Shown: piece after piece, positions 2,629 to 24,432 of the stretch
How positions within the stretch are numbered: position 1 is the first letter of the stretch
Layout of the letters: the number at the start of each line of letters is the position of its first letter
DNA from: a virus
Lineage: Duplodnaviria > Heunggongvirae > Uroviricota > Caudoviricetes
IMG/VR virus record: IMGVR_UViG_3300029508_000048
Coordinates: 1 to 24,982 of that record
Length of the DNA: 24,982 nt
Reading direction: 5' to 3' (one strand)
Made by a program: the position numbers and the translations under genes
Notes under the pieces: model-generated
Seen by the model: the letters and a program-made list of their open reading frames with translations, nothing else
Databases searched by the model: none
Told to the model about the DNA's origin: nothing

Positions 2629-2974
2629 TCTCTGCTCCTGTTGATACGGAAAGGGACACAGGCACACCGTTATTCCGCCGCCCGGTCAGCTCCACCACCA
2701 TAGAACCGTCAAAGTTGCTGTTGATAGTGATGGAATCCAGCGTCAGCCGTGGCTCCCAGCGACTCAGCGCCACATACACTGCCGACATGACCTGCAGGCG
2801 TAATGCCGGATTTTGTGGCTGATCTATTAAAACCGACAGGAGGGAACCATATTCCCGGCGGGCAATGCGGCTACCCTGCGGTGTCAGCAGAATGTCCCGC
2901 ACCGACTGGCGCAGATGATCAATATCAGTAATGACTTTGCCGCTGGTATTGTTCATCCCGCTATAAAGCGTCAT
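2615..2974 (-). CDS. W: Baseplate protein W (gp25/GPW family)
   Basis: 119-aa minus ORF between V and J, small GPW-like baseplate wedge protein by size, position and sequence character. Overlaps the J start. Confidence 0.8.
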   Translation of the reverse strand: MTLYSGMNNTSGKVITDIDHLRQSVRDILLTPQGSRIARREYGSLLSVLIDQPQNPALRLQVMSAVYVALSRWEPRLTLDSITINSNFDGSMVVELTGRRNNGVPVSLSVSTGAENGSD

Positions 2975-3549
2975 ACCGGGCCTCCGGTTGTATCGCCGCC
3001 TTTCAGGACGCCAGTATGCTGATGCGCATCAACCACAATCCCGTTAGAACTCATCGCACCGCCGCCCTGGGTAACGCCACCATTGATCACCACTTCGCTG
3101 TTAATACGCGTGCGGTCAGCCTCCAGTACAAACTCACTGGTTTTCATGGTGATGTTGTCAGCGGCCTCAATGACCATTGATTTGATGCCCCTGACATACC
3201 AGCGCCCGGTGGCGGGTTCGTATTCAAACCAGCCACCGTCAGGATGTTCTATCACGCAGGCGTCCGCCGACGTCGACGGTGGCGCGAACTGATTCGAATA
3301 GATGGCGGGTAACGCAAAGGCGGTTTCCAGATTGCCGCCCAGACTCAGCAGCACCACCTGCTCACCTTCCGATGGTCGCCACCATGTGCGGGCATTACCC
3401 GCGCGCAGCGTCAGCCAGTTAATCCAGTTGGTTTCAAGGTCGCCCGTTTTCACCCGACAAAGCCAGTTTTCCCGGTCCACTTCGGTGACTACACCTATGC
3501 GGATCAGATTGGTGATAAGGCGCATGATTTCTGTGAGTTGTGAGTTCAT
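2971..3549 (-). CDS. V: Baseplate spike / tail protein V (P2 gpV-like)
   Basis: 192-aa minus ORF; N-terminus MNSQLTEIMRLITNLIRIGVV resembles the remembered P2 gpV N-terminus. First gene of the V-W-J-I-H operon. Confidence 0.85.
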   Translation of the reverse strand: MNSQLTEIMRLITNLIRIGVVTEVDRENWLCRVKTGDLETNWINWLTLRAGNARTWWRPSEGEQVVLLSLGGNLETAFALPAIYSNQFAPPSTSADACVIEHPDGGWFEYEPATGRWYVRGIKSMVIEAADNITMKTSEFVLEADRTRINSEVVINGGVTQGGGAMSSNGIVVDAHQHTGVLKGGDTTGGPV

Positions 3550-3630: not shown

Positions 3631-4500
3631 ATGAATAAATTCCAAATTAGTCCAAATTTAAAACCTGAAACAAAACTGTGGCGCTATATGTCTCTTGATA
3701 AATTCATCGATATATTATCCAGAGAAGAGCTATATTTTTCTCCTCTTAGTTCTTACAGCAATAGCGATCCATATGAGGGGTTATTACCTAAGGTTGCCTT
3801 AAATGCGTGGGCAAGCATCGTCAAAAGTAAGTTTAATGATATACAATCATATTTCAATGATACCGTAGAGCGTATCAGGGAAAACGAACTATTAGGCAGA
3901 ATCTCTAATGAAAAAGCCGAAACAGAAATCACCAAGTTGCAAACAATGATGGATACACAATTACCAAAAATAGAATCTATCTATTTTAAGATTTTAAACT
4001 CCGTCACAGTGAATTGTTGGCATCAAAATGAACATGAGTCAGAAGGAATGTGGCGTTTGTATTCAGATGCTAACAAAGGAATAGCAATTCAAACATCAAT
4101 ATCACGCTTGATAGATTCACTTCAATCTGAAGAGATTATCTCTATTAGTGAAGTAAAATACATTGATTATTTCGATGAAAAACTAACATCTGAAGATTGC
4201 GTCGTGAACGGAAGAATGGTTCCTTTTTTAAAACGAAAAGCTTTTTCACATGAAAATGAAGTACGTTTATCCATAACACCAAAAATTATTAATAGCGACA
4301 TCGAAAACTATACTCCCAAGGGGATAAGAATAAAAACAGATCCTGTAAAGCTAATCGAAAAAATATACATTTCTCCATATGCTTCACAACCTTACCCCAG
4401 TGCTGTAGCAGCAATATTAGAAAAATTCAATATTGATAATAACAAACTTGTTATCTCCAACTTGCTTACGATTGATCATAATTTATTGAGATTGTTTTGA
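3631..4500 (+). CDS. Hypothetical protein, AT-rich moron in reverse orientation inside the late tail cluster (position of P2 orf30); possible abortive-infection or defence protein
   Basis: 289-aa ORF with AT-rich codon usage unlike the flanking late genes, opposite strand, own promoter. N-terminal motif LWRYMSLDKFIDILSREELYFSP...SDPYEG. No family assigned. Confidence 0.7.
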   Translation: MNKFQISPNLKPETKLWRYMSLDKFIDILSREELYFSPLSSYSNSDPYEGLLPKVALNAWASIVKSKFNDIQSYFNDTVERIRENELLGRISNEKAETEITKLQTMMDTQLPKIESIYFKILNSVTVNCWHQNEHESEGMWRLYSDANKGIAIQTSISRLIDSLQSEEIISISEVKYIDYFDEKLTSEDCVVNGRMVPFLKRKAFSHENEVRLSITPKIINSDIENYTPKGIRIKTDPVKLIEKIYISPYASQPYPSAVAAILEKFNIDNNKLVISNLLTIDHNLLRLF

Positions 4501-4505
4501 TTAGC

Positions 4506-4955
4506 TTAGCTATCAACCAAAGCACGTAATAATACGTCTTGCGATAATGACAAAATTTTATCGTTATAACCTAACAACTGCCGCTCTGCATAACGCACCT
4601 CCGGTCCCTTACGACTGACGCGATCTCGCAGGCCGTAATGGTGAACGCGGGCAATGCGCTGCAGCTTGCCTTCAAACTGTACACTGGCAGAGTCGGCGCT
4701 GGCGGCAGTTTTCAGGTATTTTGTCGTGCGCAGCTTTGCAAACATCTGACGTTTGATGCGCCCCTTCTTGCTGCGTGCTGTTACCCTGCGCGGTTCATAA
4801 CTGCTGCCATCTGGATTGCGCTGCATCCTGATATTCTGCTGCTGTGTCCGGCGCAGTTCCTGCGCCAGCTGGCGCATCATGCGGCTTCTCGTGGCTGGTT
4901 CCAGATTCGCCAGCAAGGCACTCAGCCAGTCGTCCACCTTCTGCAGTTCAGCCAC
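4506..4955 (-). CDS. S: Tail completion protein S (P2 gpS-like)
   Basis: 149-aa minus ORF, GTG start at 4955 with GGTG upstream; basic C-terminal half; downstream of R. Confidence 0.8.
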   Translation of the reverse strand: MAELQKVDDWLSALLANLEPATRSRMMRQLAQELRRTQQQNIRMQRNPDGSSYEPRRVTARSKKGRIKRQMFAKLRTTKYLKTAASADSASVQFEGKLQRIARVHHYGLRDRVSRKGPEVRYAERQLLGYNDKILSLSQDVLLRALVDS

Positions 4956-10458: not shown

Positions 10459-12225
10459 ATGAACACCACACTGACACCCGCAGATCTCGATCCCCGTCGG
10501 CAGGCTATGCTGCTGTACTTTCAGGGATACCGCGTCGCCCGCATTGCTGAAATGCTGGGCGAGAAAGTTGCAACCATTCACAGCTGGAAAAAACGCGACA
10601 AGTGGGGTGACTATGGGCCGCTGGATCAGATGCAGCTCACCACCGCCGCACGCTACTGCCAGCTCATTATGAAGGAGCACAAAGAAGGGAAAGATTTCAA
10701 AGAAATTGACCTGCTGGCACGCCAGTCTGAGCGCCACGCGCGGATCGGCAAGTTTAACAATGGCGGCAACGAAGCCGACTTAAACCCTAACGTTGCCAAC
10801 CGCAACAAAGGCCCACGTCGTCAGCCGGAAAAGAATGTTTTCACCGATGAACAGATTGAGAAGCTGGAAGAAATTTTCCATTCCTCCATGTTCAACTACC
10901 AGCGCCACTGGTGGGAAGCCGGAAAAACCAACCGCATCCGCAACCTGCTGAAGTCACGCCAGATCGGCGCGACCTTTTACTTTGCCCGTGAAGCCCTGAT
11001 TGACGCCCTGCTTACCGGACGTAACCAGATTTTCCTTTCTGCCAGTAAGGCTCAGGCCCACGTCTTTAAACAATACATCATCGACTTCGCCAAAGAAGTC
11101 GAGGTGGAGCTAAAAGGCGATCCGATGGTGCTTCCTAACGGAGCCACGCTTTACTTCCTCGGCACCAATGCCCGCACGGCCCAGAGTTATCACGGCAACC
11201 TGTATCTGGATGAATATTTCTGGATACCGAAATTTCAGGAGCTGCGCAAAGTGGCTTCCGGGATGGCTATTCACAAGAAATGGCGACAAACCTATTTTTC
11301 CACGCCATCCAGCCTGACCCACAGTGCTTATCCGTTCTGGTCCGGTGCGCTGTTCAACCGTGGACGCAACAAAGCTGACAAGGTGGACATCGACCTGTCC
11401 CACATCAATCTGGCCCCCGGCCTGCTGTGCGCAGACGGGCAATACCGCCAGATAGTCACCGTGGAAGATGCGGTGCGCGGCGGCTGTAACCTGTTCGACC
11501 TCGACCAGCTGCGCATGGAGTACAGCCCGGACGAATACCAGAACCTGCTGATGTGCGAGTTTGTGGACGATCTCGCGTCCGTGTTCCCGCTCAGCGAACT
11601 GCAGGCGTGCATGGTGGACAGTTGGGAAGTCTGGACCGACTTTCATGCACTGGCCCTGCGCCCGTTTGGCTGGCGCGAGGTGTGGATCGGTTATGACCCG
11701 GCAAAAGGTACGCAGAACGGTGACAGTGCCGGGTGCGTGGTGGTGGCTCCGCCAGCTGTGCCGGGCGGTAAGTTCCGTATTCTTGAGCGTCACCAGTGGC
11801 GCGGGATGGACTTCCGCGCCCAGGCGGACGCCATCAAAAAACTGACCGAACAGTACAACGTGACATACATCGGCATCGACTCAACCGGCGTTGGTCACGG
11901 GGTTTACGAGAACGTGAAAGCGTTCTTTCCTGCCGTCCGGGAGTTTGTCTACAACCCCAACGTTAAAAACGCCCTGGTACTCAAGGCCTACGACATTATC
12001 AGCCACCGCCGTCTGGAGTTTGACGCCGGGCACACCGACATTGCGCAGTCATTCATGGCGATCCGTCGCGCCACCACCGCCAGCGGCAACCGCCCGACCT
12101 ATGAAGCCAGCCGCAGCGAAGAAGCCAGCCATGCCGATCTGGCCTGGGCAACAATGCACGCACTGTTTAACGAACCGCTGCAGGGCGAGTCCGCCAATAC
12201 CAGCAATATTGTGGAGATTTTTTGA
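10459..12225 (+). CDS. P: Terminase ATPase (large) subunit P
   Basis: 588-aa ORF, size and divergent position relative to O as in P2; 4-bp ATGA overlap with Q. Confidence 0.9.
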   Translation: MNTTLTPADLDPRRQAMLLYFQGYRVARIAEMLGEKVATIHSWKKRDKWGDYGPLDQMQLTTAARYCQLIMKEHKEGKDFKEIDLLARQSERHARIGKFNNGGNEADLNPNVANRNKGPRRQPEKNVFTDEQIEKLEEIFHSSMFNYQRHWWEAGKTNRIRNLLKSRQIGATFYFAREALIDALLTGRNQIFLSASKAQAHVFKQYIIDFAKEVEVELKGDPMVLPNGATLYFLGTNARTAQSYHGNLYLDEYFWIPKFQELRKVASGMAIHKKWRQTYFSTPSSLTHSAYPFWSGALFNRGRNKADKVDIDLSHINLAPGLLCADGQYRQIVTVEDAVRGGCNLFDLDQLRMEYSPDEYQNLLMCEFVDDLASVFPLSELQACMVDSWEVWTDFHALALRPFGWREVWIGYDPAKGTQNGDSAGCVVVAPPAVPGGKFRILERHQWRGMDFRAQADAIKKLTEQYNVTYIGIDSTGVGHGVYENVKAFFPAVREFVYNPNVKNALVLKAYDIISHRRLEFDAGHTDIAQSFMAIRRATTASGNRPTYEASRSEEASHADLAWATMHALFNEPLQGESANTSNIVEIF

Positions 12226-13256
12226 TGGGAAAGAGTAAGAAAAACCGCGCAGCGGCGATGAATCAGATCCAGCATAAAAACCAGACTTCAGCCGAAGCAT
12301 TCAGCTTCGGCGATCCCGTTCCGGTTCTGGACCGCCGTGAACTGCTGGACTATGTGGAATGCGTACAGACAGATCGCTGGTATGAGCCGCCAGTGAGTTT
12401 TGACGGACTGGCACGAACATTCCGCGCAGCCGTACACCACAGTTCACCGATTGCAGTGAAATGCAACATTCTGACCAGCACCTACATCCCTCACCCGCTG
12501 CTCAGCCAGCAGGCTTTTTCACGTTTTGTGCAGGACTATCTGGTATTTGGTAACGCCTACCTGGAGAAACGCACGAACCGGTTCGGTGAAGTTATCGCCC
12601 TTGAGCCTGCTCTGGCAAAATACACCCGACGCGGGTTAGACCTGGATACCTACTGGTTTGTGCAATACGGTATGATCACCCAGCCATATCAGTTCACGAA
12701 AGGCAGCATCTTTCATCTGATGGAACCGGACATCAACCAGGAAATCTACGGCCTGCCCGGTTATCTTTCTGCTATTCCATCCGCCCTGCTCAACGAGTCT
12801 GCCACGCTGTTCCGCCGCAAGTATTACATTAACGGCAGTCATGCAGGCTTCATCATGTATATGACCGACGCCGCGCAGAACCAGGAGGATGTAAACAACC
12901 TCCGCAACGCGATGAAAAGTGCCAAAGGTCCTGGTAACTTCCGTAACCTATTTATGTACTCGCCAAACGGCAAAAAGGACGGGCTTCAGATCATCCCGTT
13001 GTCAGAAGTCGCGGCGAAGGATGAGTTTTTGAATATCAAGAACGTCAGCCGTGATGACATGATGGCGGCGCACCGTGTACCGCCACAAATGATGGGTATT
13101 ATGCCGAATAATGTTGGGGGGTTTGGGGATGTGGAGAAGGCAAGTAATGTATTTGTTCGTAACGAACTTATCCCCTTACAAAAACGTATAGAACAATTAA
13201 ATCAATGGATAGGAAACACAATTATTAATTTTTTACCATATTCTCTCCAAAGTTAA
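12222..13256 (+). CDS. Q: Portal protein Q
   Basis: 344-aa ORF translationally coupled to P; last about 55 codons switch to AT-rich usage. Confidence 0.9.
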   Translation: MMGKSKKNRAAAMNQIQHKNQTSAEAFSFGDPVPVLDRRELLDYVECVQTDRWYEPPVSFDGLARTFRAAVHHSSPIAVKCNILTSTYIPHPLLSQQAFSRFVQDYLVFGNAYLEKRTNRFGEVIALEPALAKYTRRGLDLDTYWFVQYGMITQPYQFTKGSIFHLMEPDINQEIYGLPGYLSAIPSALLNESATLFRRKYYINGSHAGFIMYMTDAAQNQEDVNNLRNAMKSAKGPGNFRNLFMYSPNGKKDGLQIIPLSEVAAKDEFLNIKNVSRDDMMAAHRVPPQMMGIMPNNVGGFGDVEKASNVFVRNELIPLQKRIEQLNQWIGNTIINFLPYSLQS

Positions 13257-13296: not shown

Positions 13297-13914
13297 TTAC
13301 CAGTTAAAAATTGATGAGCTGCGAATTGCAGGAACATCCGATGGATTTCGTTTAGCAGCTGGTTCCATCAACTTACGCTTGTTAAATGCCTGATCAATAT
13401 AATACTCAGGATTTTTAATAAAGACAGAGTATTTTACCAATGCACAATATACGTCAGAGTCATTATAATGGGGAACTGTTTTTTCATAAACATGATTCTT
13501 TCTAACCAGATAAGGCAAATAATAATCATATCCCCAACCTGGCGTTCTTAGACTTATAGAACATCCGCATGATGGATCTGCACATACTGCAGGAGTAAAC
13601 ACACTATCGTAAATTTCATCTCTGATAACACCAATTAGACCATTATAGTTTTCTCCCCAGAGTGATGCTTGAATTTCAGAGTTTACAAATGGACGATTTT
13701 TGGTTTCCGTTCCAATAAGAACGACAGTAACCGTTGAGTCTTTTAAAAAATCCTCACGAATAGTCCTCATTATTGTTTCATCAGTGTTAGTTGTACTAAT
13801 GTCACCATCACTTACCGACTTATCAATAAACGATTCTCCTCCGAATAAATCAATAATCTCATCTTTGAGATCTTGTTCGTTAGCATGATGATAACTAAGA
13901 AACGTCTTATGCAT
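13297..13914 (-). CDS. TIR-like protein, ThsB-like (DUF1863-type TIR-like domain), candidate NAD-consuming sensor of a defence cassette
   Basis: 205-aa AT-rich ORF. N-terminal KTFLSYHHANEQD, then TVTVVLIGTETKNRPFVNSEIQAS with a Glu near residue 80, resembling remembered ThsB/TIR motifs (F-S-Y-H...D strand, VLIG..T, catalytic E). Start ATG overlaps the upstream stop (TAATG); GGAG RBS. Confidence 0.6.
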   Translation of the reverse strand: MHKTFLSYHHANEQDLKDEIIDLFGGESFIDKSVSDGDISTTNTDETIMRTIREDFLKDSTVTVVLIGTETKNRPFVNSEIQASLWGENYNGLIGVIRDEIYDSVFTPAVCADPSCGCSISLRTPGWGYDYYLPYLVRKNHVYEKTVPHYNDSDVYCALVKYSVFIKNPEYYIDQAFNKRKLMEPAAKRNPSDVPAIRSSSIFNW

Positions 13915-14645
13915 TATTCACTCCATTTATCAACATTTATATCAAACTCTTTGACTACCTTATCATTGAAGAAATCGTTTACTTCTTTAAAACCTTCCAA
14001 TACTTGACTAAAATGATAATAATGCTTTTGTATAGTACTTATAGGGGTTAAATGATACGGCAATGATATAAATTCGCCGTTAGGGTCTCTATCCTTTGTG
14101 GTCACTTTATCATTATCTGAAACATATTTATGCCATCTCCGATAATTATTTTGATGCTTTGTTAAAAAAGAGTTTAACGTTTTCAAAATTTCATTTGAAA
14201 GTAAATACAGTTTTTTATCTCTTTTTTTCTTCACATCTAGTAATTTCATTTCATCTCTAATGAATTTATAGCACTCATAATATGAGTTTAAAACTTCTTC
14301 AATTGAGTCATAATTCGGATCAAATTTAAATAATGTTCGCTTCGTATCCAGATAATTTTTTACGCTCTTTTTAAAAAGAAGATCAGACTTATTTAGTAAA
14401 ATATTAATACCACCAAAACTAAGTTGCTCTAATCTCAATGAATATCTTTGATGAAATGCACCGACCAGCAAGATATAAGCAACTAAAAATAGTATTAATA
14501 CTGATAGAAAAGCACGAATTATGTTTACATTTGACATGAAATTAACTATAAACCACCATTTTTCAAACGGTGAAAACGGAATGCACCCCATGATAATAAG
14601 TAGAAGAACAAAGATACAACCCCATAAAACCCACAATCTGTACAT
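13914..14645 (-). CDS. Membrane protein with two N-terminal TM helices and an unassigned soluble domain of about 180 aa; candidate effector partner of the TIR-like protein
   Basis: Track ORF starts at TTG 14690. Preferred start is ATG 14645 (MYRLWVLWGCIFVLLLIIMGCI...) with AGGA 8 nt upstream. Two hydrophobic helices then a K/N/Y-rich domain. Very AT-rich. Translationally coupled to the downstream TIR-like gene. Confidence 0.65.
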   Translation of the reverse strand: MYRLWVLWGCIFVLLLIIMGCIPFSPFEKWWFIVNFMSNVNIIRAFLSVLILFLVAYILLVGAFHQRYSLRLEQLSFGGINILLNKSDLLFKKSVKNYLDTKRTLFKFDPNYDSIEEVLNSYYECYKFIRDEMKLLDVKKKRDKKLYLLSNEILKTLNSFLTKHQNNYRRWHKYVSDNDKVTTKDRDPNGEFISLPYHLTPISTIQKHYYHFSQVLEGFKEVNDFFNDKVVKEFDINVDKWSE

Positions 14646-14667
14646 AAGAAAGATCCTTTTTCTTTTT

Positions 14668-14695
14668 ATAATACTGCAACTACACCTCAAGTCAA
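14668..14695 (-). promoter_or_regulatory. Sigma70-like promoter of the membrane-protein/TIR-like operon
   Basis: Minus strand TTGACT (plus 14690-14695), 16-bp spacer, TATTAT (plus 14668-14673), about 20 bp upstream of ATG 14645. Confidence 0.45.
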
Positions 14696-14700
14696 AACCC

Positions 14701-14760
14701 TCTTCTGATATTACCCTCTACTACAGTAACCCATCACATGACCTCCGACTTATCAGAAGA
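14701..14760. repeat. Perfect 10-bp inverted repeat pair TCTTCTGATA ... TATCAGAAGA separated by 40 bp
   Basis: Read directly at 14701-14710 and 14751-14760, just upstream of the cassette promoter and next to the cos-like motif. Confidence 0.7.
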
Positions 14761-14794
14761 CTAGCCAAACTTTCTCAATCAAATCAGGTTGCGC

Positions 14795-14820
14795 GCGCTC
14801 GTATCCCCGCCACGCCTGCC
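14795..14820. other. cos-like sequence (candidate cohesive-end site)
   Basis: Minus strand reads GGCGTGGCGGGGATACGAGC. The first 13 nt match the P2/186-type 19-nt cohesive end as I remember it (GGCG(A/T)GGCGGGGAAAGCA-), 12-13 of 13. Confidence 0.35.
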
Positions 14821-14860
14821 CGCTTTATGTAGTGGTTTTCATGCACCTGCATGATCTACG

Positions 14861-14885
14861 CAAAAGCCCGCCAGAACTGGCGGGC
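14861..14885 (-). terminator. Rho-independent terminator downstream of the lipoprotein gene
   Basis: GC-rich inverted repeat GCCCGCCAG/CTGGCGGGC followed on the minus strand by TTTTG. Confidence 0.5.
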
Positions 14886-14989
14886 CTTAACACAAAAGAT
14901 CCTCAAACGATCATGCGATCTCATGCAGCATAGACATGCGCGTTTATGCAGAATGTGCAAAATCGTAACATACTCAGTAAGCGTGAAAC

Positions 14990-15667
14990 CTAGAACGTGA
15001 CAGCCTTGTCAAAGCCAGAAATAATTGTATAAGAAATAGACGAGTTATCAGCCTTGTTCACTTTGAACTTGGCACCTTTGTAAGCGATAACATCACTTCC
15101 CTTAGAATCTACAGAAAAATCTGTTGTAAATGCTGCACGAGCCATATCGTTTGCAAATTCACGATAGGTGAACTTCATTACACCGCCTGCATTTCCATTA
15201 TATTCGATAGTCTTAACCAATGAATTACTCACTCGACACAGCCCATCAGGAACACGTTTGATAGAAATTTCTGATGCAGTATAAGAAGTGCCATTTGGCG
15301 GTGATATCTCATTTTTTGCAGCATCGTAACTAACATAATCAACATAGTTACCGATTTGCCCATAGAGATTTTTTAACGCAACAGCTTGAGGGTTATGATA
15401 ATTGCGGTAAATTCCATTCCCCTCACTGCAATATGTACCAGCAGCGATAGAAGACAATGCACCATTAGCCGCACCAAGTTCTAGTACGTCCGTTTTAAAT
15501 CCAGTAGCAGATGTGATAATGGGATCGCCCATGTAGGCGGTAGCACTTTGCCCAATAGCTGGCTTCACCACTTCAATAGCAGTGATATTTCGGTTAGAAG
15601 CATGTGGCACGCAACCAGTTAGGATTACAGCAAGAGATATTGGTAACGCTACATTATTAATTTTCAT
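14990..15667 (-). CDS. Lipoprotein of unknown function (cargo gene in the cos-proximal right-arm region; candidate surface/exclusion factor)
   Basis: Start at ATG 15667 gives MKINNVALPISLAVILTGC, a signal peptide with lipobox L-T-G-C. Mature part is Gly/Ser/Asn/Tyr-rich. GC lower than the backbone by eye. Confidence 0.7.
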   Translation of the reverse strand: MKINNVALPISLAVILTGCVPHASNRNITAIEVVKPAIGQSATAYMGDPIITSATGFKTDVLELGAANGALSSIAAGTYCSEGNGIYRNYHNPQAVALKNLYGQIGNYVDYVSYDAAKNEISPPNGTSYTASEISIKRVPDGLCRVSNSLVKTIEYNGNAGGVMKFTYREFANDMARAAFTTDFSVDSKGSDVIAYKGAKFKVNKADNSSISYTIISGFDKAVTF

Positions 15668-15690
15668 TTTTAGCCTATTATTCTTTTCTT

Positions 15691-15726
15691 GACAAAAAAC
15701 AAGGCGATATCTGATTGACATCGCCT
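15691..15726 (-). terminator. Putative terminator after the DinI-like gene
   Basis: Minus strand AGGCGAT-(11 nt)-ATCGCCT hairpin followed by TGTTTTTTG. Confidence 0.4.
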
Positions 15727-15780: not shown

Positions 15781-16014
15781 TCAATGCAGCCAGCTGTCGT
15801 CTTCCCACACCTTCTGCAAAATTTTCATCACTTGTTTTCTTTCTTCGTCCAGTTGCAGTCCGGTCAGTTCCACACCGTTAGAGCTACCTTTACGGATACG
15901 GATTACCGTTTTGGGATACAGGGGGCGCAGATTGCGGTAAAGCTCGGATTCAAGGGCGTCCAGGGTAGACTGGCTAATCTTCTGCTCTTTATCGATCATT
16001 ATTTCAATGCGCAT
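15781..16014 (-). CDS. dinI: DinI-like protein (DinI family; C-terminal-domain equivalent of a 186 Tum-type antirepressor)
   Basis: Start ATG 16014 with GAGGTG upstream. MRIEIMIDKEQ...LDALESELYRNLRPLYPKTVIRIRKGSSNGVELTG...ILQKVWEDDSWL matches the remembered DinI pattern (MRIEVTIAK...VSVRY...ILQETWE). Confidence 0.8.
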   Translation of the reverse strand: MRIEIMIDKEQKISQSTLDALESELYRNLRPLYPKTVIRIRKGSSNGVELTGLQLDEERKQVMKILQKVWEDDSWLH

Positions 16015-16024
16015 AAAAGTCACC

Positions 16025-16213
16025 TCAGCTGATGACATCCATTGAGCGGTTGTATTCGTGGCTTCTGATTTTTGCCATGAGTTCATCTGTCAGTTCAGAA
16101 ACCCACTGCAGAGCCAGCCCCTTCTCTTCATCACTACACTCACTAGCCGCTACAAGCTTAAGAAAAAAATCAATGCGCTGGAGCTTCAAAGACTCCAAAA
16201 AATAGTCCTGCAT
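16025..16213 (-). CDS. Small acidic protein, first gene of the LexA-controlled operon (possible N-terminal part of a Tum-like antirepressor)
   Basis: 62-aa ORF with ATG at 16213 and a strong AGGAGG RBS; ends 11 nt before the DinI-like start in another frame. Confidence 0.55.
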   Translation of the reverse strand: MQDYFLESLKLQRIDFFLKLVAASECSDEEKGLALQWVSELTDELMAKIRSHEYNRSMDVIS

Positions 16214-16730: not shown

Positions 16731-16815
16731 CAAGGGGACAGTTATTGCCACGAGTCCAAGGGGACAGTTATTGCCACGAGTCCAAGGGGACAGTTATTGC
16801 CACGAGTCCAAGGGG
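16731..16815. repeat. Tandem direct repeat, 3 copies of 26 bp plus a partial fourth, at the 3' end of gene A
   Basis: CAAGGGGACAGTTATTGCCACGAGTC at 16731-16756, 16757-16782, 16783-16808, then CAAGGGG at 16809-16815. Confidence 0.9.
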
Positions 16816-18859
16816 CGCAAGCGCCCTGGTCGGCTGCCGCCTCCTGAACGTCAACGGCCTTACGGGCCTTTTTCCACTTCATCGCGTGCGTGCAAATCTT
16901 GCCCTCTATAATCGGGGACCAGATGCCATAGATACGGATACCGTGATCGCCGTAAGCGCTCGGTTCGTCGTTAAGCTCATAAGCCGTGCGGACAAGGTGA
17001 TGTTTGCGGGGAACCAGTACACCGCCCTGCTTCATGATGTAAGTGGCAAAGCAACCCGCATCTGCAGCTGCCAGTACCGCATCCAGACGCGGATTATCCA
17101 GTACCGGTGCACCCGCTTTGCGTTCGCCCTGCACTCTCGCCGCCTGACCAGCCAGCAAGCGCAGCTCACGGTATGCCTGACGCCCCGGGATACCAAAGAA
17201 ACGGAATTGCTGGACACGGTGCAGTGACGCCCAGGCACAGACATGCTCGGCGCTGTCACGCAATGATCTGCCGGTTTCTTTGCTGATTTCTTTAGCCAGC
17301 CCGCGCCCGTCGATGTTCTTACTGATGTATTTGGCGATGTAGCTGGTCGGTGTACCCTTGCGCGGGTTGATTAGCTCGGACTTGAAGCGCGGGCCGGTAT
17401 TGGTGCCCAGTTCCTCGCGGTCTTCACGGATGGCGAACTTACGCAGCAGCGCGGTGATGGAACGACGGTCTTTTTTGCGCATAAAGCACAGAAGATGCCA
17501 GTGCACGGTGCCGTCATGGTGCGGCTCTGCAACGCGGACGCCGTACCAGCGCAATCCGGCCTTGTGCATGGCCTTGCGGAAAGCGGCGAACGTATCAACC
17601 AGATAATCACTGCTCTGCCGGACAGTGGCACTGGTCCACTTCGGATTAGGTCTGCCGTTGTTGAGGGTTGCGTGGAAGCGTGACGGGCAGGTGATGGTAT
17701 AGAACACCGCGCAGTCTCCGCGCATTTCCGCTATCAGTTCCAGCCCCTTAACACAGGTCATCATTTCATTACGGCGGTGTGCCGGGTTACTGTTGCTGGC
17801 GTTCACTACATCTTCCATGTCCAGCGTGTCGCCGTCTTCATTGACCAGCTCATGCGAGCGGAAGAACTCCAACGATTTGCGACGCTGCTCGCGTTTGTGT
17901 ATCACGGCTTCATAACTGACATACGGGGACGCTTTCTTGTTGACCAGACAGACGGCGCGCATCTGCTCCTCCCGCCACTCGCAGCGCATCTGCCACAATT
18001 TGCGATACCACCAGTCCGCGCACAGCATGCGCGCCAGCGACGGTGGGATCAGTTCATAAGGCACTGGCTTGCGACGGCGCTTTTTGCGGCGCAACTTCTC
18101 AAAGGCAGGCGGAATGACCTCAAGGCGCATGGCTTCTGCAGCAACCCTTTCCCACGCCTGGCGGATTTCTTCTGGTTTAACATCGTCACTGACAAACAGA
18201 TCACCGCAAGCCGCATCAAGACACATGCTCATATGTGCCGCAACCAGCGTGGAAAGGCGCTTGACCTGATCCTGATTCATTTCAGGAAGTACCAGCAATC
18301 CCTCCAGCCCGTCCTGGCTCGCCATGAATCGGAAAGATGCAGACACCTGGCTGTCACGCACTCGCTCCAGCCGCTCAAAACAAGGCCTGATTGTTTCGCG
18401 CAGATAACGGGAATAAGCTTTAGCCCTGCCTAGGCTATTGAAGTATTTAATCCGCTCTAACAGAGGCTTGCTGATATGGGCAGGCATGGCGCTTACATCG
18501 GCAATAATCACCAAATCGGGATTAACGCGCTGCTGCTCGCGGGCCATTCTGGCATGGCTAATCAGCCGATCCTGCTCTATTTCACGCTGGACAGGATCGC
18601 GGGATTCATTGAAGAAATAACGTTCCCACACCTCATCACTCAGCGCCTCACGGCGCAGATGCTCCTGCTCGTTATCTGCAGCGTACAGAGTGATGAGGTT
18701 TGAAAGCGCAGACTCAGGCGCAAATTCCGCCGGGTCCAAATACGGGTTAACCGCTTTTTTTGGGGTATTCCATGGAAAGGCCACGGCGGTCACAATCGGA
18801 CCGCCTTTATCTTTTAGTAGCTCAGACATCACTGGAAGACTCCAAAGCTCACAAAGCAC
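16742..18859 (-). CDS. A: Replication initiation protein A (rolling-circle endonuclease, P2/186 gpA-like)
   Basis: 705-aa ORF containing the YIAKYISK active-site tyrosine motif typical of gpA/phiX174-A initiators. True start may be a few codons in (MSELLKDKG). Confidence 0.9.
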
Positions 18860-21196: not shown

Positions 21197-21321
21197 GATG
21201 CAACATTCCTCGTTTAGCAATGATTAATCAGGATGAATACTGATCGTTTGTATTTTGTGAACACGATAAACATACGATCACATCATGAAATCGTCAAGAT
21301 AAAAGTTCACCTGGAGTGACC
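21197..21321. promoter_or_regulatory. Immunity switch region between the apl/cox-like gene and cI
   Basis: 125-bp AT-rich intergenic region between divergent regulator genes; 7-bp inverted repeat TGATCGT (21241-21247) / ACGATCA (21274-21280). Confidence 0.5.
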
Positions 21322-21888
21322 ATGAATTTGGAAAAAGGCGGCCGTGGTGCCATAGAGCGTATGGTTGAAGCCTATGGCTTCAAGACAAGACAAGCTTTGT
21401 GCGACCATTTAGGGATTTCAAAGAGTACTTTGGCGACACGCTATATGCGCGACTCCTTCCCTGCGGAATGGGTTATTCAGTGCGCCTTAGAGACAGGTAC
21501 GTCATTGAGCTGGCTGACTAATGGCTACGGAATCAAAGAGGGTTCACAAAATGAAAACACCAAAGAACTTCCGCTAAAAATTCTCTATGATGGTGAACTT
21601 TGTCCTGAAGGGTCTTATGTTTTTGATGTAAATTTTCTACCTAAAGCTCTAAAAAATCCGATGGTTGTTGTTGTTGATAGTTCCAAATACATTTGTGATA
21701 TTGATTATGATGATGTCCGTGATGGAAAATGGATTGTTAATATTGATGGTGAAATATCAATGAGAACAATTACACGCTTGCCTGGCAGGCGCCTTCATGT
21801 GGAAGGTGGTATATCTCCTTTCGAATGCGCGTTAGAAGATATAATAATGATCGCAAAAATCGTGATGGCATGTCTTGAATATAAATAA
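21322..21888 (+). CDS. cI: CI immunity repressor (186 CI-type)
   Basis: ATG 21322 with GGAG 5 nt upstream (track starts at GTG 21316). N-terminal HTH-like region (LCDHLGISKSTLATRYMRDSFPAEW), C-terminal domain, about 190 aa as recalled for 186 CI. Confidence 0.8.
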   Translation: MNLEKGGRGAIERMVEAYGFKTRQALCDHLGISKSTLATRYMRDSFPAEWVIQCALETGTSLSWLTNGYGIKEGSQNENTKELPLKILYDGELCPEGSYVFDVNFLPKALKNPMVVVVDSSKYICDIDYDDVRDGKWIVNIDGEISMRTITRLPGRRLHVEGGISPFECALEDIIMIAKIVMACLEYK

Positions 21889-21934
21889 AACTTAAATTTT
21901 AGCAAAATAAATCACGTGAACGAGGAGCTAATTA

Positions 21935-23191
21935 ATGGATGAATGTATAGTCGAGATGTTATTAATAGTGAATAAAGATACTTCCTTTGGACGCTCTCCG
22001 TCAGCCTATAAAAAAATAATTGAGGCCAGTGAGGAAGTCATATTTTCACCAAAAGAATTAAAATTCAAAGAACAGTCATTTAAATATGATATATCAGAAT
22101 ATGGAAGCAATAAAGAAACTATCTCTGTAAAATTAACACTAAACGACGTTAGTGAAGATAATTTAATCACTTTCTCAAGATTAACCAGACTCTTCAAAAA
22201 AATATCTAGCGAAAGTAATTTAGGTAGCACTCAAATTATTTGGGATGATATAAGCAAATATTACTCAATTCAGGCTTATCCATTAATCCATGAAATTGAA
22301 AACTTAATGAGAAAATTAATAACAAAATTCATGATACATAACGTTGGATTGTCTTGGACAAAAGATTCAGTGCCGAAGGAATTTTCAGAAGCATTGAAAA
22401 AATCCGAAAAAAACACAGAATATAATGAACATAATTTAATGTATCAAGTTGACTTTATTGAACTTTCTGACTTTATATTCAAATCTTACCGAGAGATTGA
22501 AATAACAGATTTGATCCGAAAATTAACCCCGCTTGAATTTAAAGACATTAATGCTGATATATTCTCAGAATTGAAAAAAATCGTTCCCAGAACAAACTGG
22601 GAAAAATTCTTTGAGTCAAACATCGAAGCAAATGCTGACACTATAATAAAAAATTGGAGTATTTTATATCGACTCAGATGCAAAGTTGCTCATAATAGAG
22701 ATTTTACTAAACAAGATCTTGATGAAGTAATTCGCCTTACAAATACACTGAGTCCAATACTAAAAAAAGCAATTGAAAAAACCGAGACTCTGACTATTGA
22801 TCCGAAGGAAAAAGAAGAATTAACATCCCAGTTTGAGAATGAGTTTTCTAACAATACTAAAAGTGATGAAGAATTATTCAAAGACAGAGTGCTTGAATTA
22901 TATCTACAAATAAGACATTTATATCAACTTACACATTCAAACAGTGAAAATATTAATAGCTATTACAAAGTAATACAAACAACATTCCAAAATGTTTTGC
23001 ATGACGAAAAGTTCAATGCCGAAGACGTAATGAATTTAATTAATATCTCAACTAATGATGATGTTCTGAGAAAATGTGATAATTTCGAGATACATGATTT
23101 AATGAATATTTGCCATTCTATTAAAGAACTTGTTAATTTTAAAATATCAAGTTTTGAAGCTGGGTCAAATGAAGCAGTTAAAAATGAATGA
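21935..23191 (+). CDS. Hypothetical 418-aa protein inside the lysogenic cI-int operon; candidate abortive-infection/defence protein with an Rx4-6H (HEPN-like) motif
   Basis: Very AT-rich ORF with GAGGAG RBS; motif ILYRLRCKVAHNRDF near the middle; no TM segments; followed by a terminator. Confidence 0.7.
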   Translation: MDECIVEMLLIVNKDTSFGRSPSAYKKIIEASEEVIFSPKELKFKEQSFKYDISEYGSNKETISVKLTLNDVSEDNLITFSRLTRLFKKISSESNLGSTQIIWDDISKYYSIQAYPLIHEIENLMRKLITKFMIHNVGLSWTKDSVPKEFSEALKKSEKNTEYNEHNLMYQVDFIELSDFIFKSYREIEITDLIRKLTPLEFKDINADIFSELKKIVPRTNWEKFFESNIEANADTIIKNWSILYRLRCKVAHNRDFTKQDLDEVIRLTNTLSPILKKAIEKTETLTIDPKEKEELTSQFENEFSNNTKSDEELFKDRVLELYLQIRHLYQLTHSNSENINSYYKVIQTTFQNVLHDEKFNAEDVMNLINISTNDDVLRKCDNFEIHDLMNICHSIKELVNFKISSFEAGSNEAVKNE

Positions 23192-23250
23192 TAATGTTTT
23201 ATCTAATAGTTATCAAACATTGACCACTGTTCAAACATACAGTTAAATTT

Positions 23251-23275
23251 AGCCCTCAGACATGAGGGCTTTTTT
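23251..23275 (+). terminator. Rho-independent terminator between the 418-aa gene and int
   Basis: AGCCCTCA-GACA-TGAGGGCT hairpin followed by TTTTT that abuts the int ATG at 23276. Confidence 0.6.
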
Positions 23276-24328
23276 ATGGCAGTACGAAAACTCGACACAG
23301 GTAAATGGATATGCGAATGCTACCCCGCAGGTCGCAACGGACGCCGCATGCGTAGGCAATTCGCCACTAAAGGCGAGGCTCTGGCTTTCGAACGTCACAC
23401 TATGGAAGAAACAGAAGCAAAACCCTGGCTAGGCGAATCGGTAGACCGTCGGACTCTAAAAGACGTCGTTGAACTCTGGTTCAAGCTGCACGGCAAATCT
23501 CTGACTGCTGGCGAGCATGTTTACGACAAGCTGATCCTGATGGTCGATGCTCTCGGAAATCCCCTCGCCACTGATTTAACATCCAAAATGTTCGCGCACT
23601 ATCGCGATAAACGCCTGACAGGTGAAATCTACTTTAGCGAAAAATGGAAGAAAGGAGCCAGCCCGGTAACTATCAATCTTGAGCAAAGCTATATGAGCGG
23701 AGTGTTTAGCGAGTTGGCACGACTTGGAGAATGGACTGCACCAAACCCACTGGAGAACATGCGCAAATTCACCATCGCAGAAAAGGAGATGGCCTGGCTG
23801 ACTCATGAACAAATCACTGAGCTTTTGTGCGACTGCAAACGCCAAAGCCCCCTGCTCGCTCTGGTTGTCAAAATCTGTCTGAGTACCGGTGCCCGCTGGC
23901 GCGAAGCTGTAAATCTGACTCGTTCTCAGGTTACAAAATACCGGATCACATTTGTCAGGACTAAGGGCAAAAAGAACCGCAGCATTCCGATCAGCAAAGA
24001 GTTGTATGAGGAAATTATTGCCCTGGACGGCTTCAAGTTCTTTACTGACTGCTACTTCCAGTTTTTATCTGTGATGGAGAAAACTTCTATCGTGCTGCCG
24101 CGCGGTCAGCTTACCCACGTTCTGCGCCATACGTTTGCAGCACACTTTATGATGTCAGGCGGTAACATCCTTGCCCTACAGAAAATCCTTGGTCACCACG
24201 ACATAAAAATGACCATGCGCTATGCTCACCTAGCCCCTGATCACCTTGAAACAGCGCTGCGCTTTAACCCATTGGCAACCCTGCCAAATGGCGACAAAGT
24301 GGCGGCAGCGGTTGGCATTGCACCGTAA
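23276..24328 (+). CDS. int: Tyrosine integrase (P2/186 Int family)
   Basis: 350-aa ORF with C-terminal catalytic signature ...HVLRHTFAAHF...HHDIKMTMRYAHL (H-x-x-R ... Y); last prophage gene before the host flank. Confidence 0.9.
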   Translation: MAVRKLDTGKWICECYPAGRNGRRMRRQFATKGEALAFERHTMEETEAKPWLGESVDRRTLKDVVELWFKLHGKSLTAGEHVYDKLILMVDALGNPLATDLTSKMFAHYRDKRLTGEIYFSEKWKKGASPVTINLEQSYMSGVFSELARLGEWTAPNPLENMRKFTIAEKEMAWLTHEQITELLCDCKRQSPLLALVVKICLSTGARWREAVNLTRSQVTKYRITFVRTKGKKNRSIPISKELYEEIIALDGFKFFTDCYFQFLSVMEKTSIVLPRGQLTHVLRHTFAAHFMMSGGNILALQKILGHHDIKMTMRYAHLAPDHLETALRFNPLATLPNGDKVAAAVGIAP

Positions 24329-24387
24329 TCGCCACTCCTTATCACTAACCTAACTTATTGATTATCTTGCAACTCGTTGTTTTAATT

Positions 24388-24415
24388 AACCCATTTACAT
24401 AAATGGGTTTTTTGT
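24388..24415 (+). terminator. Rho-independent terminator downstream of int
   Basis: AACCCATTT-ACAT-AAATGGGTT hairpin followed by TTTTTGTT. Confidence 0.55.
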
Positions 24416-24432
24416 TATCTAAAACTTATCTA

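Follow-up and report, generated by a model that had tools for sequence, protein, structure and literature searches.

A candidate single-gene HEPN defence cargo between the repressor and integrase genes of a P2/186-like Escherichia coli prophage

Ribonucleases (RNases) of the HEPN superfamily have an active site made of two R-x4-6-H motifs, which are brought together either within one chain, as in Cas13, or between chains, as in HepT and ApeA. HepS, which is encoded by the Salmonella prophage Gifsy-1, is a solo HEPN abortive-infection protein that is constitutively expressed and non-toxic until the tail-tip protein J binds (PMC13043305). It has 218 amino acids (aa) and one domain, forms a tetramer and cleaves tRNA anticodon loops, and its gene lies between those for replication and for the antirepressor in this lambdoid prophage (PMC13043305). 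ApeA is a single-gene HEPN defence of about 600 aa with a C-terminal HEPN domain (Gao et al. 2020; bioRxiv 10.64898/2026.03.20.713152). HEPN genes are also present among the uncharacterised systems of the P4 hotspot, whereas the seven systems for which validation is reported include no HEPN gene (PMC9122126). Here we describe a HEPN gene in a stretch of DNA of 24,982 nucleotides (IMG/VR record IMGVR_UViG_3300029508_000048, positions 1–24,982; in the following the window), which comprises most of a P2/186-like prophage with the tail, baseplate, capsid, terminase and portal genes, gpA and a cII/apl-like early region. At the 3′ end of the window the order is cI, the HEPN gene, int and then E. coli rcdA, beside which the prophage is integrated. 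We suggest that the HEPN gene is a horizontally acquired cargo of the cI–int junction and that it probably encodes a self-contained single-gene HEPN endoribonuclease protecting the lysogen from other phages, for which abortive infection is the most likely mode. The case for a defence role comes from the genomic context.

A preliminary description of this locus had pointed to an AT-rich open reading frame (ORF) of 418 aa between cI and int with a strong ribosome binding site, no transmembrane segment and the peptide RLRCKVAH, which resembles the catalytic motif of HEPN RNases. All of these features are present (coordinates in Table 1). The flanking genes match the respective Pfam families, the Shine–Dalgarno sequence GAGGAG is found 7 nt upstream of the ATG, the peptide occupies aa 246–253, and the highest mean Kyte–Doolittle value over 19 residues is only 0.6, too low for a membrane helix. 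The warning that a lone motif may arise by chance was justified as well: R-x4-6-H occurs at least once in 59% of 20,000 shuffles of the cargo protein, and the protein has a second such sequence, RHLYQLTH at aa 327, which is not conserved. Thus, the presence of the motif alone is uninformative and its significance comes from its conservation across the family.

A word-indexed search yielded 134 homologues and the identical protein on 174 contigs, where its NCBI name is “HEPN domain-containing protein [Escherichia coli]”. Of the 117 homologues with 300 aa or more, 116 have R248, and the same number holds for H253 and for N254, with the identity falling to about 25%. In an alignment of 30 diverse members (alignment A1), some of which are only about 24% identical to the query, R248, A252, H253 and N254 as well as the motif E122-N123-x2-R126-K127 are invariant. 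A profile search of 1.84 billion cluster representatives gave 623 clusters, defined at 50% identity, with E ≤ 1e-30 and 1754 with E ≤ 1e-3. The cargo protein itself matches the Pfam family HEPN_Swt1 (PF18731) over aa 123–267 (E = 5.5e-4, 20.6 bits). Of the 30 aligned members, 27 match this family (E ≤ 0.01) and 10 match the HepT-like family PF01934. The gathering score of PF18731 is reached by P0036 (32.1 bits), P0053 (29.9), P0027 (29.4) and P0039 (27.5); in the alignment P0036, P0027 and P0039 are 41%, 51% and 33% identical to the cargo protein. Threshold-passing homologues with 41–51% overall identity are 47–53% identical over the best local alignment, and the stretch matched by PF18731 in the threshold-passing homologues includes the R-x4-H motif. 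As the cargo protein is below the threshold whereas its homologues reach it, membership in PF18731 rests on transitive homology. Searching the PDB with a profile of the central domain produced spurious matches to the GCN4 coiled coil only. Given the profile matches, the invariant catalytic residues and the fold described below, it is very likely that the protein belongs to the HEPN superfamily and to its Abi2/Swt1 branch (Anantharaman et al. 2013, PMC3710099). The HEPN assignment, which had been rated as weak beforehand, has therefore become the best-supported part of the description.

The comparison of the homologues shows a conserved family architecture: an alpha/beta N-terminal domain, a Swt1-like HEPN domain with the invariant motifs R-x4-H-N and E-N-x2-R-K, and a C-terminal HEPN-derived bundle. 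This is in agreement with the AlphaFold model of the whole protein (mean predicted local distance difference test score, pLDDT, 80.7), which consists of an alpha/beta domain (aa 1–104), a long helical domain carrying the motif and a C-terminal helical bundle. The proposed structural check for a HEPN-like bundle around the motif came out in favour of the assignment, with two reservations. In the model a four-helix up-and-down bundle carries the motif, but generic helical bundles score similarly, and a Foldseek search of the model against the PDB returned nothing significant. Ferredoxin-like or KA1-like structural matches (Med20, the C-terminal domain of aIF2-alpha, bS6, the METTL16 VCR and M20-peptidase dimerisation domains) were seen with the full-length model only, so they probably reflect the N-terminal domain. 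They may be taken as a weak lead, based on the model, that this domain is an RNA- or protein-binding module.

The domains of the protein evolve at different rates. With P0014 and P0018, the closest homologues, set aside, the identity to the cargo protein is 39–69% in the HEPN core, 12–48% in the N-terminal domain and 7–41% in the C-terminal domain. Such fast-diverging flanking domains would be the expected pattern if they serve in recognition or regulation and are under pressure to diversify. The C-terminal domain of distant members is another HEPN domain, of the HepT/DUF86 type and with an RNxxVH motif, for example, RNIMVH in P0041 and RNIIVH in P0044, which score 28.7 and 27.8 against PF01934 (threshold 23.5), and the family profile has weak matches to HepT structures (6m6w, 5yep) in this domain with E of about 0.2. 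The cargo protein has neither a match to PF01934 nor an RN-x3-H motif. Downstream of the first motif, 62 of the 80 listed members that are more distant have the strict pattern RN-x(2-4)-H, but it is missing from all 37 full-length members among P0001–P0040, a set which includes the cargo protein and the enterobacterial cI–int clade. Judged from these alignments the cargo protein has one predicted catalytic HEPN domain and one degenerate HEPN-derived bundle. One could go further and propose that the family is a hitherto undescribed type of single-chain tandem-HEPN RNase, made up of an N-terminal sensor, a Swt1-like HEPN and a HepT-like HEPN, that in the ancestor the two unlike HEPN domains formed an intramolecular, Cas13-like composite site and that the second site decayed to a regulatory pseudo-HEPN in the enterobacterial cI–int clade, forcing a trigger-dependent homodimerisation. 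We regard this history as rather doubtful. If true, it would be an independent natural case of HEPN duplication followed by specialisation, and it would define a new defence family spanning P2-like phages, P4 satellites, Pf filamentous prophages and islands with BREX and restriction–modification (R-M) systems.

When the window is compared by blastn with sister prophages at the same rcdA site, the similarity ends at position 21828, 60 nt short of the stop codon of cI, and resumes at 23187 in a prophage with a KAP-type cargo and at 23206 and 23213 in two other sisters. At this junction the KAP-cargo sister has a 61-aa ORF and a 443-aa KAP P-loop nucleoside triphosphatase (NTPase), another sister prophage has a 63-aa YdcA-family ORF only, phage vB_EcoM-813R9 encodes a 558-aa “chromosome segregation ATPase” (SMC-like) and Klebsiella phage 4LV2017 a 349-aa hypothetical protein. 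The integrases of the compared sister prophages are 91–94% identical, the cI proteins 45–72%. The G+C content of the cargo ORF is 0.291, as compared to 0.408 in cI, 0.502 in int and 0.495 over the window as a whole. Conserved flanks thus enclose unrelated genes of foreign composition at one and the same position of related elements, as with the cargo of prophage hotspots, and the sequences show that the HEPN gene is foreign DNA placed precisely between conserved backbone sequence. This bears out the earlier view of the gene as cargo, for which the comparison of the cI–int junction in related prophages had been proposed: the junction is variable and int is conserved.

The variable region starts inside cI and not at its stop codon, because the similarity to the KAP-cargo prophage ends at 21828. 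In fact the 3′ half of cI is AT-rich (G+C content 0.354 versus 0.463 for the 5′ half), and between sisters the C-terminal half of the repressor is 34–56% identical versus 63–90% for the N-terminal helix–turn–helix (HTH) half. A common transfer of cI and the HEPN gene as a single module was considered and rejected, as in Kosakonia cI is 45%, the HEPN protein ∼50% and int 91% identical.

Two further observations concern the cargo of the sister prophages. Directly after cI the sisters encode a Cys-rich protein of 61–63 aa with a hydrophobic N-terminal stretch (L015 2160–2345; L016 and L017 3681–3872), labelled as “YdcA family” in L017 and as “hypothetical protein” in L015 and L016; the window prophage is devoid of this ORF and the HEPN cassette occupies its place. 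The interval between int and the attachment site is another cargo slot in the sisters (L016 5246–6474; L017 5145–5630). In one sister it holds a Panacea-domain protein and a 251-aa hypothetical protein, likely a toxin–antitoxin (TA) pair, and in another a 161-aa hypothetical protein, while the corresponding interval of the window (24329–24432) is empty.

A cI–int hotspot has been reported for the K139-like P2-related Vibrio phages (Rousset et al. 2022, PMC9122126), and the integrase–primase interval holds 8% of the recognised P2 defence systems (PMC13586616). The junction described here resembles these P2 and P4 defence hotspots in being a variable AT-rich slot flanked by conserved phage genes (PMC9122126, PMC13586616). 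In contrast to the canonical E. coli P2 hotspots (gpA–portal and the tail-gene hotspot Z/fun), the cI–int junction of E. coli 186-type phages is not singled out in these studies.

The spacer of 46 nt between cI and the HEPN gene has no terminator-like and no promoter-like site on the + strand when scanned, and the equivalent spacers of Kosakonia and Cronobacter have only 16 and 12 nt, respectively. On account of these short spacers, the lack of such sites and the strong Shine–Dalgarno sequence we infer that the HEPN gene is co-transcribed with cI in lysogens. The preliminary description had in addition pointed to a strong intrinsic terminator following the gene (23251–23275). An 8-bp G+C-rich hairpin with a T-run is indeed present, and RNA folding of 23192–23300 gives z = −3.3, better than 200 of 200 shuffles. 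As an argument about the cargo transcript, this was partly off the mark. The hairpin is kept just upstream of the int ATG, with compensatory changes in the stem, in sister prophages with other cargo or no cargo (L015, L017). The arrangement AAACATTGACCACTGTTCAAACATACAGTTAAATTTAG-hairpin-TTTTTATGG is common to the window and the KAP-cargo prophage, in which the stem is GTCCTCAGACATGAGGAC, and the prophage without large cargo has a structurally equivalent hairpin (GCTCTCTACTGGAGGGC) before the int ATG (compared regions: window 23215–23278, L015 3700–3775, L017 3990–4065). The hairpin thus belongs to the phage backbone and not to the cargo, and being conserved across different cargo it informs on the regulation of int rather than on the HEPN gene. 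Its 3′ arm includes GAGG, the probable Shine–Dalgarno sequence of int. The hairpin with its T-run, which reaches exactly to the start codon of int and is preceded by the conserved promoter-like TTGACC-N18-TAAATT, looks like an attenuator or a translational control element of int, independent of the cargo. It would still terminate or attenuate the cI–HEPN transcript. The terminator was dismissed as a sign that the cassette forms a transcription unit of its own, since the hairpin is a backbone element.

The position of the gene in the lysogenic cI–int unit, directly 5′ of a conserved hairpin that sequesters the int Shine–Dalgarno sequence, could also mean that the protein serves the cycle of the phage itself instead of defending against other phages, as an RNA-binding or processing factor of the lysogenic transcript which, for example, sets the Int level by processing the cI–int mRNA at the hairpin; some HEPN domains such as that of eukaryotic Swt1 are in fact non-catalytic RNA binders (PMC3710099). 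We consider such a role highly unlikely. Sister prophages with 91–94% identical integrases and the same hairpin are without the gene or carry unrelated cargo, so that the phage cycle can do without the gene. Moreover, the catalytic residues are invariant, and members of the family are also found in P4 satellites, in Pf prophages, at BREX and R-M loci and in a remnant without phage genes.

The genomic contexts of the relatives speak for the defence reading. In E. coli 186-like prophages the identical gene is found in the order cI–HEPN–int every time; in L001 the locus in its entirety is 99.6% identical, and the gpA–portal hotspots of strains with the identical gene differ (GmrSD; DUF4325 and a 324-aa protein; others). 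Megablast with the gene as query found nothing in the complete E. coli RefSeq collection, yet the identical protein is encoded on 174 contigs of a larger collection, among them complete chromosomes (for example, CP056920.1), so this collection is unfit for estimating the prevalence. Kosakonia has a protein with ∼50% identity (50% in alignment A1, 51% by BLASTP) in the same cI–HEPN–int slot. In Cronobacter (L020/L021 5833–7221) a 51-aa C-terminal fragment of cI and an intact HEPN gene lie beside an rcdA-like TetR gene, thus at the corresponding site of the chromosome, whereas int and the other phage genes are gone; this arrangement, found on 13 contigs, suggests that the gene was retained for the benefit of the host and has been domesticated. 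The copy of Enterobacter is located in P4-like satellites, in the psu–int interval that is the canonical defence hotspot of these satellites (PMC9122126). In Pseudomonas aeruginosa filamentous prophages of the Pf type carry the copy, which follows a 91-aa ORF with a weak HTH match below the threshold (HTH_19, 21 bits versus a cut-off of 30.2). In Nostoc it is located between brxC and pglX of a BREX operon, in Bacillus thuringiensis in an island with RES and reverse-transcriptase genes, and a type I HsdR gene adjoins the family copy in three loci (Pseudoalteromonas, Massilia and Fulvivirga). Altogether, the species-representative genomes with a copy belong to the Proteobacteria, Cyanobacteria, Bacteroidota, Bacillota, Acidobacteriota, Verrucomicrobia, Planctomycetota and Chloroflexota. 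These loci show a family that recurs in prophage, satellite and defence-system contexts.

Hotspots carry counter-defence genes too (PMC13586616), and the second HEPN motif is lost in the clade of the cargo protein. The gene might hence act in another kind of conflict, either in anti-defence or in the competition between elements, for example, against P4-type satellites or against RNA-based immunity of the host, or it might encode a catalytically decayed HEPN binder. On our estimate this is very unlikely, because the first HEPN motif is fully kept in the clade despite about 50% overall divergence, the locations inside BREX and beside type I R-M operons are typical of defence genes, and none of the searches made revealed a resemblance to known anti-defence proteins.

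HEPN RNases are common as toxins of TA modules (HepT/MntA, RnlA and AbiF with its noncoding RNA antitoxin; PMC12737573). Together with the HepT-like C-terminal domain of the relatives and the tight linkage to cI, with spacers of 12–46 nt in three lineages, this raises the question of whether the gene is the toxin of an addiction module which stabilises the prophage in that its loss kills the cell. The antitoxin would be a cis-encoded RNA (type III-like as in AbiF/AbiFr), the C-terminal pseudo-HEPN of the protein itself, or cI. No conserved partner gene was detected. In an all-against-all BLAST of the neighbours within about 4 kb in 80 species-representative loci no gene family is present in more than five loci, and as there is no recurrent neighbour family the HEPN gene is a solo unit. 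The most recurrent neighbour is an ORF of 91–98 aa directly 3′ of the family gene, which is found in five loci of Firmicutes metagenome-assembled genomes only (L070 4381–4656, L080, L082, L083, L088); it has CxxC pairs, is Zn-ribbon-like and weakly matches DUF7695. An MNT-type partner and a Pfam Abi_2 match are absent. The cargo-specific flanks have only 46 nt upstream and about 23 nt downstream. A scan for tandem repeats gave no candidate antitoxin array, only a weak repeat of 2.5 copies of 12 nt within the ORF (22300–22329, score 39), and an Rfam scan gave no match above noise (RyhB and the Phe leader with E of 0.17–0.65, both overlapping the backbone hairpin). For want of intergenic space, repeat array and Rfam match above noise, a type III TA system with an AbiF-like RNA antitoxin was rejected. 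In addition, cI is not needed as antitoxin, since the Cronobacter remnant keeps the HEPN gene with only the 51-aa fragment of cI. Thus, an addiction function appears unlikely.

We therefore return to the single-gene defence and suggest how it could work. Transcribed with cI from the lysogenic promoter, the gene would provide the protein in every lysogen. There the protein would be held inactive by its own fast-evolving N- and C-terminal domains, acting as sensor and brake; we propose self-inhibition by the flanking domains because no antitoxin was found. A phage component or a consequence of the infection would relieve the inhibition, whereupon the first HEPN domains of two chains would homodimerise and form the composite R/H site. 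The dimerisation is postulated since the clade has one motif per chain and HEPN RNases need two; distant relatives could use their second motif within the chain. The activated enzyme may then cleave RNA (tRNA, mRNA or phage RNA) and thereby stop phage production.

Several points weigh against this proposal. The score of the cargo protein in PF18731 (20.6 bits) is lower than the gathering score of 27.5, searches of the protein in PHROGs and NCBIfam gave no match, and neither did tblastn against 50,697 deposited phage genomes. The loss of the second HEPN motif in the clade could mean a reduced or altered activity, and a weak promoter-like site within cI (21674–21702) could drive the HEPN gene separately. 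Literature searches on PDC-M34 (see below), on PF18731 or Swt1-like HEPN in defence and on HEPN genes in P2 hotspots found no experimental work on the family with respect to RNase activity, toxicity or phage resistance, and guilt by association does not separate defence from addiction or other conflict roles. On the whole, the gene is a credible solo-HEPN defence candidate.

Table 1. Coordinates of the cI–int junction in the window (position 1 is the first nucleotide of the window)
Feature	Position	Strand	Basis
cI repressor gene (context); upstream gene of the presumed lysogenic operon	21316..21888	+	Pfam Phage_CI_repr 1e-30, Phage_CI_C 9e-25
cI–HEPN spacer, 46 nt, with Shine–Dalgarno sequence GAGGAG (21922–21927)	21889..21934	+	sequence, site scan
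Cargo gene, 418 aa, ATG start, stop codon 23189–23191; three-domain HEPN-superfamily protein	21935..23191	+	
N-terminal alpha/beta domain, aa 1–99, fast-evolving; candidate sensor/regulatory module	21935..22231	+	
Catalytic Swt1-like HEPN domain (putative activity), aa 100–289	22232..22801	+	
Helix-1 motif E122-N123-L-M-R126-K127	22298..22315	+	E, N and R invariant; K in 115/117 homologues
Putative catalytic motif R248-C-K-V-A-H253-N254 (R-x4-H-N)	22676..22696	+	R, A, H and N in 116/117 homologues; C-terminal end of helix 234–252 in the model
C-terminal helical domain, aa 290–418; aligns with the HepT-like second HEPN of distant members, RNxxVH lost	22802..23188	+	
Short cargo-specific 3′ tail, right cassette border	23192..23214	+	sister similarity resumes at 23187, 23206 or 23213
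Phage backbone: conserved spacer, promoter-like TTGACC-N18-TAAATT (23220–23249), hairpin (23251–23270) and T-run abutting the int ATG	23215..23275	+	
Tyrosine integrase gene (context)	23276..24328	+	Int_N and Phage_integrase; 91–94% identical across sisters with different cargo

The prophage carries other cargo as well. The gpA–portal hotspot (13297–15721, − strand, G+C content 0.27–0.42, between portal at 12222–13256 and gpA at 16742–18859) has three genes. The first (13297–13914, −) encodes a 205-aa ThsB-like TIR protein (Pfam ThsB_TIR 1e-14, PADLOC ThsB 6.5e-12), and the second (13914–14690, −) is a 258-aa ORF without matches, which at its 3′ end shares 1 nt with the start of the TIR gene and is probably an operon partner of the TIR gene rather than a canonical ThsA. 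The third (14990–15721, −) is a 243-aa ORF without matches, next to a DinI gene at 15781–16086. The genes of this hotspot are possibly a non-canonical TIR system. In the tail-gene hotspot of the Z/fun type, between the tail genes at 2971–3549 and 4506–4955, a gene with a G+C content of about 0.33 (3631–4500, +) encodes a protein of 289 aa with matches to DUF2971 of Pfam (1e-7) and to PDC-S31, a candidate system of PADLOC (2e-24). With it the number of candidate defence cargos in this prophage is three.

The HEPN label in the public annotation, single-gene HEPN defences and prophage hotspots, including cI–int in P2 relatives, are already known. The HEPN cargo is less surprising than it was first rated, because the protein has a HEPN name at NCBI and cI–int hotspots of P2-related phages had been described (PMC9122126, PMC13586616); it is an expected type of cargo at a known type of hotspot and overturns no current view. 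If the defence role of the HEPN gene is confirmed, the anti-phage repertoire would gain a further single-gene HEPN defence family, whose members are spread over many bacterial phyla, the cI–int junction of E. coli 186-type phages would be a working defence slot expressed with the repressor, and a single prophage would combine three candidate defence islands, namely HEPN, the ThsB-like TIR operon and DUF2971/PDC-S31. Comparing the tandem-HEPN relatives with the degenerate second HEPN found here offers a route to study how HEPN activity is turned off and on without an antitoxin.

Compared with the described systems the cargo protein, by its sequence, is not a member of the HepS, ApeA, AbiF/AbiD or HepT families. 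The PADLOC candidate PDC-M34B is matched by all 30 aligned members with a best E of 8.7e-14 and by the cargo protein with 4.4e-7. The match is partial and covers the first HEPN helices (aa 113–180 of 418, model length 192). PDC-M34 differs in being a multi-gene candidate; its “A” partner is absent here, where the neighbours are cI and int, and a literature search found no publication on PDC-M34.

With AbiF and AbiD (Abi_2) the cargo protein shares the HEPN clade Abi2/Swt1, whose active bacterial versions are embedded in R-M and other defence loci (PMC3710099). In contrast to AbiF/AbiD with the AbiFr noncoding RNA antitoxin, the locus has no space or repeats for a cis antitoxin RNA and the flanking domains of the protein are different; Pfam Abi_2 matches neither the cargo protein nor the 30 aligned members. 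The likeness to HepT (DUF86) of the type VII TA system HepT/MntA is seen in the distant members, whose C-terminal domain matches PF01934 and carries RNxxVH, whereas the C-terminal domain of the cargo protein has neither the motif nor the match and there is no MntA nucleotidyltransferase partner.

The closest functional precedents are HepS and ApeA. As in ApeA, a single polypeptide joins an N-terminal domain of unknown or sensor function to a HEPN RNase, which is putative here, and with one catalytic HEPN per chain an intermolecular dimerisation would be needed. One UniRef entry for a 98%-identical homologue is in fact named “Apea-like HEPN”. On the contrary, the HEPN domain of the cargo protein is central and followed by a degenerate second HEPN, size and domain order differ, and neither ApeA of PADLOC nor Apea-like HEPN of Pfam matches the cargo protein or any of the 30 members. 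HepS has no sequence similarity to the cargo protein detectable in the PDB profile search, and the cargo protein is unlike it in having 418 aa, three domains and a place in the Swt1-like branch. Nevertheless, both are single HEPN proteins encoded in an accessory slot of a prophage without a partner or inhibitor gene, both have a canonical R-x4-6-H motif, and by analogy we expect the cargo protein, like HepS, to be expressed in the lysogen and to be inactive until it is triggered.

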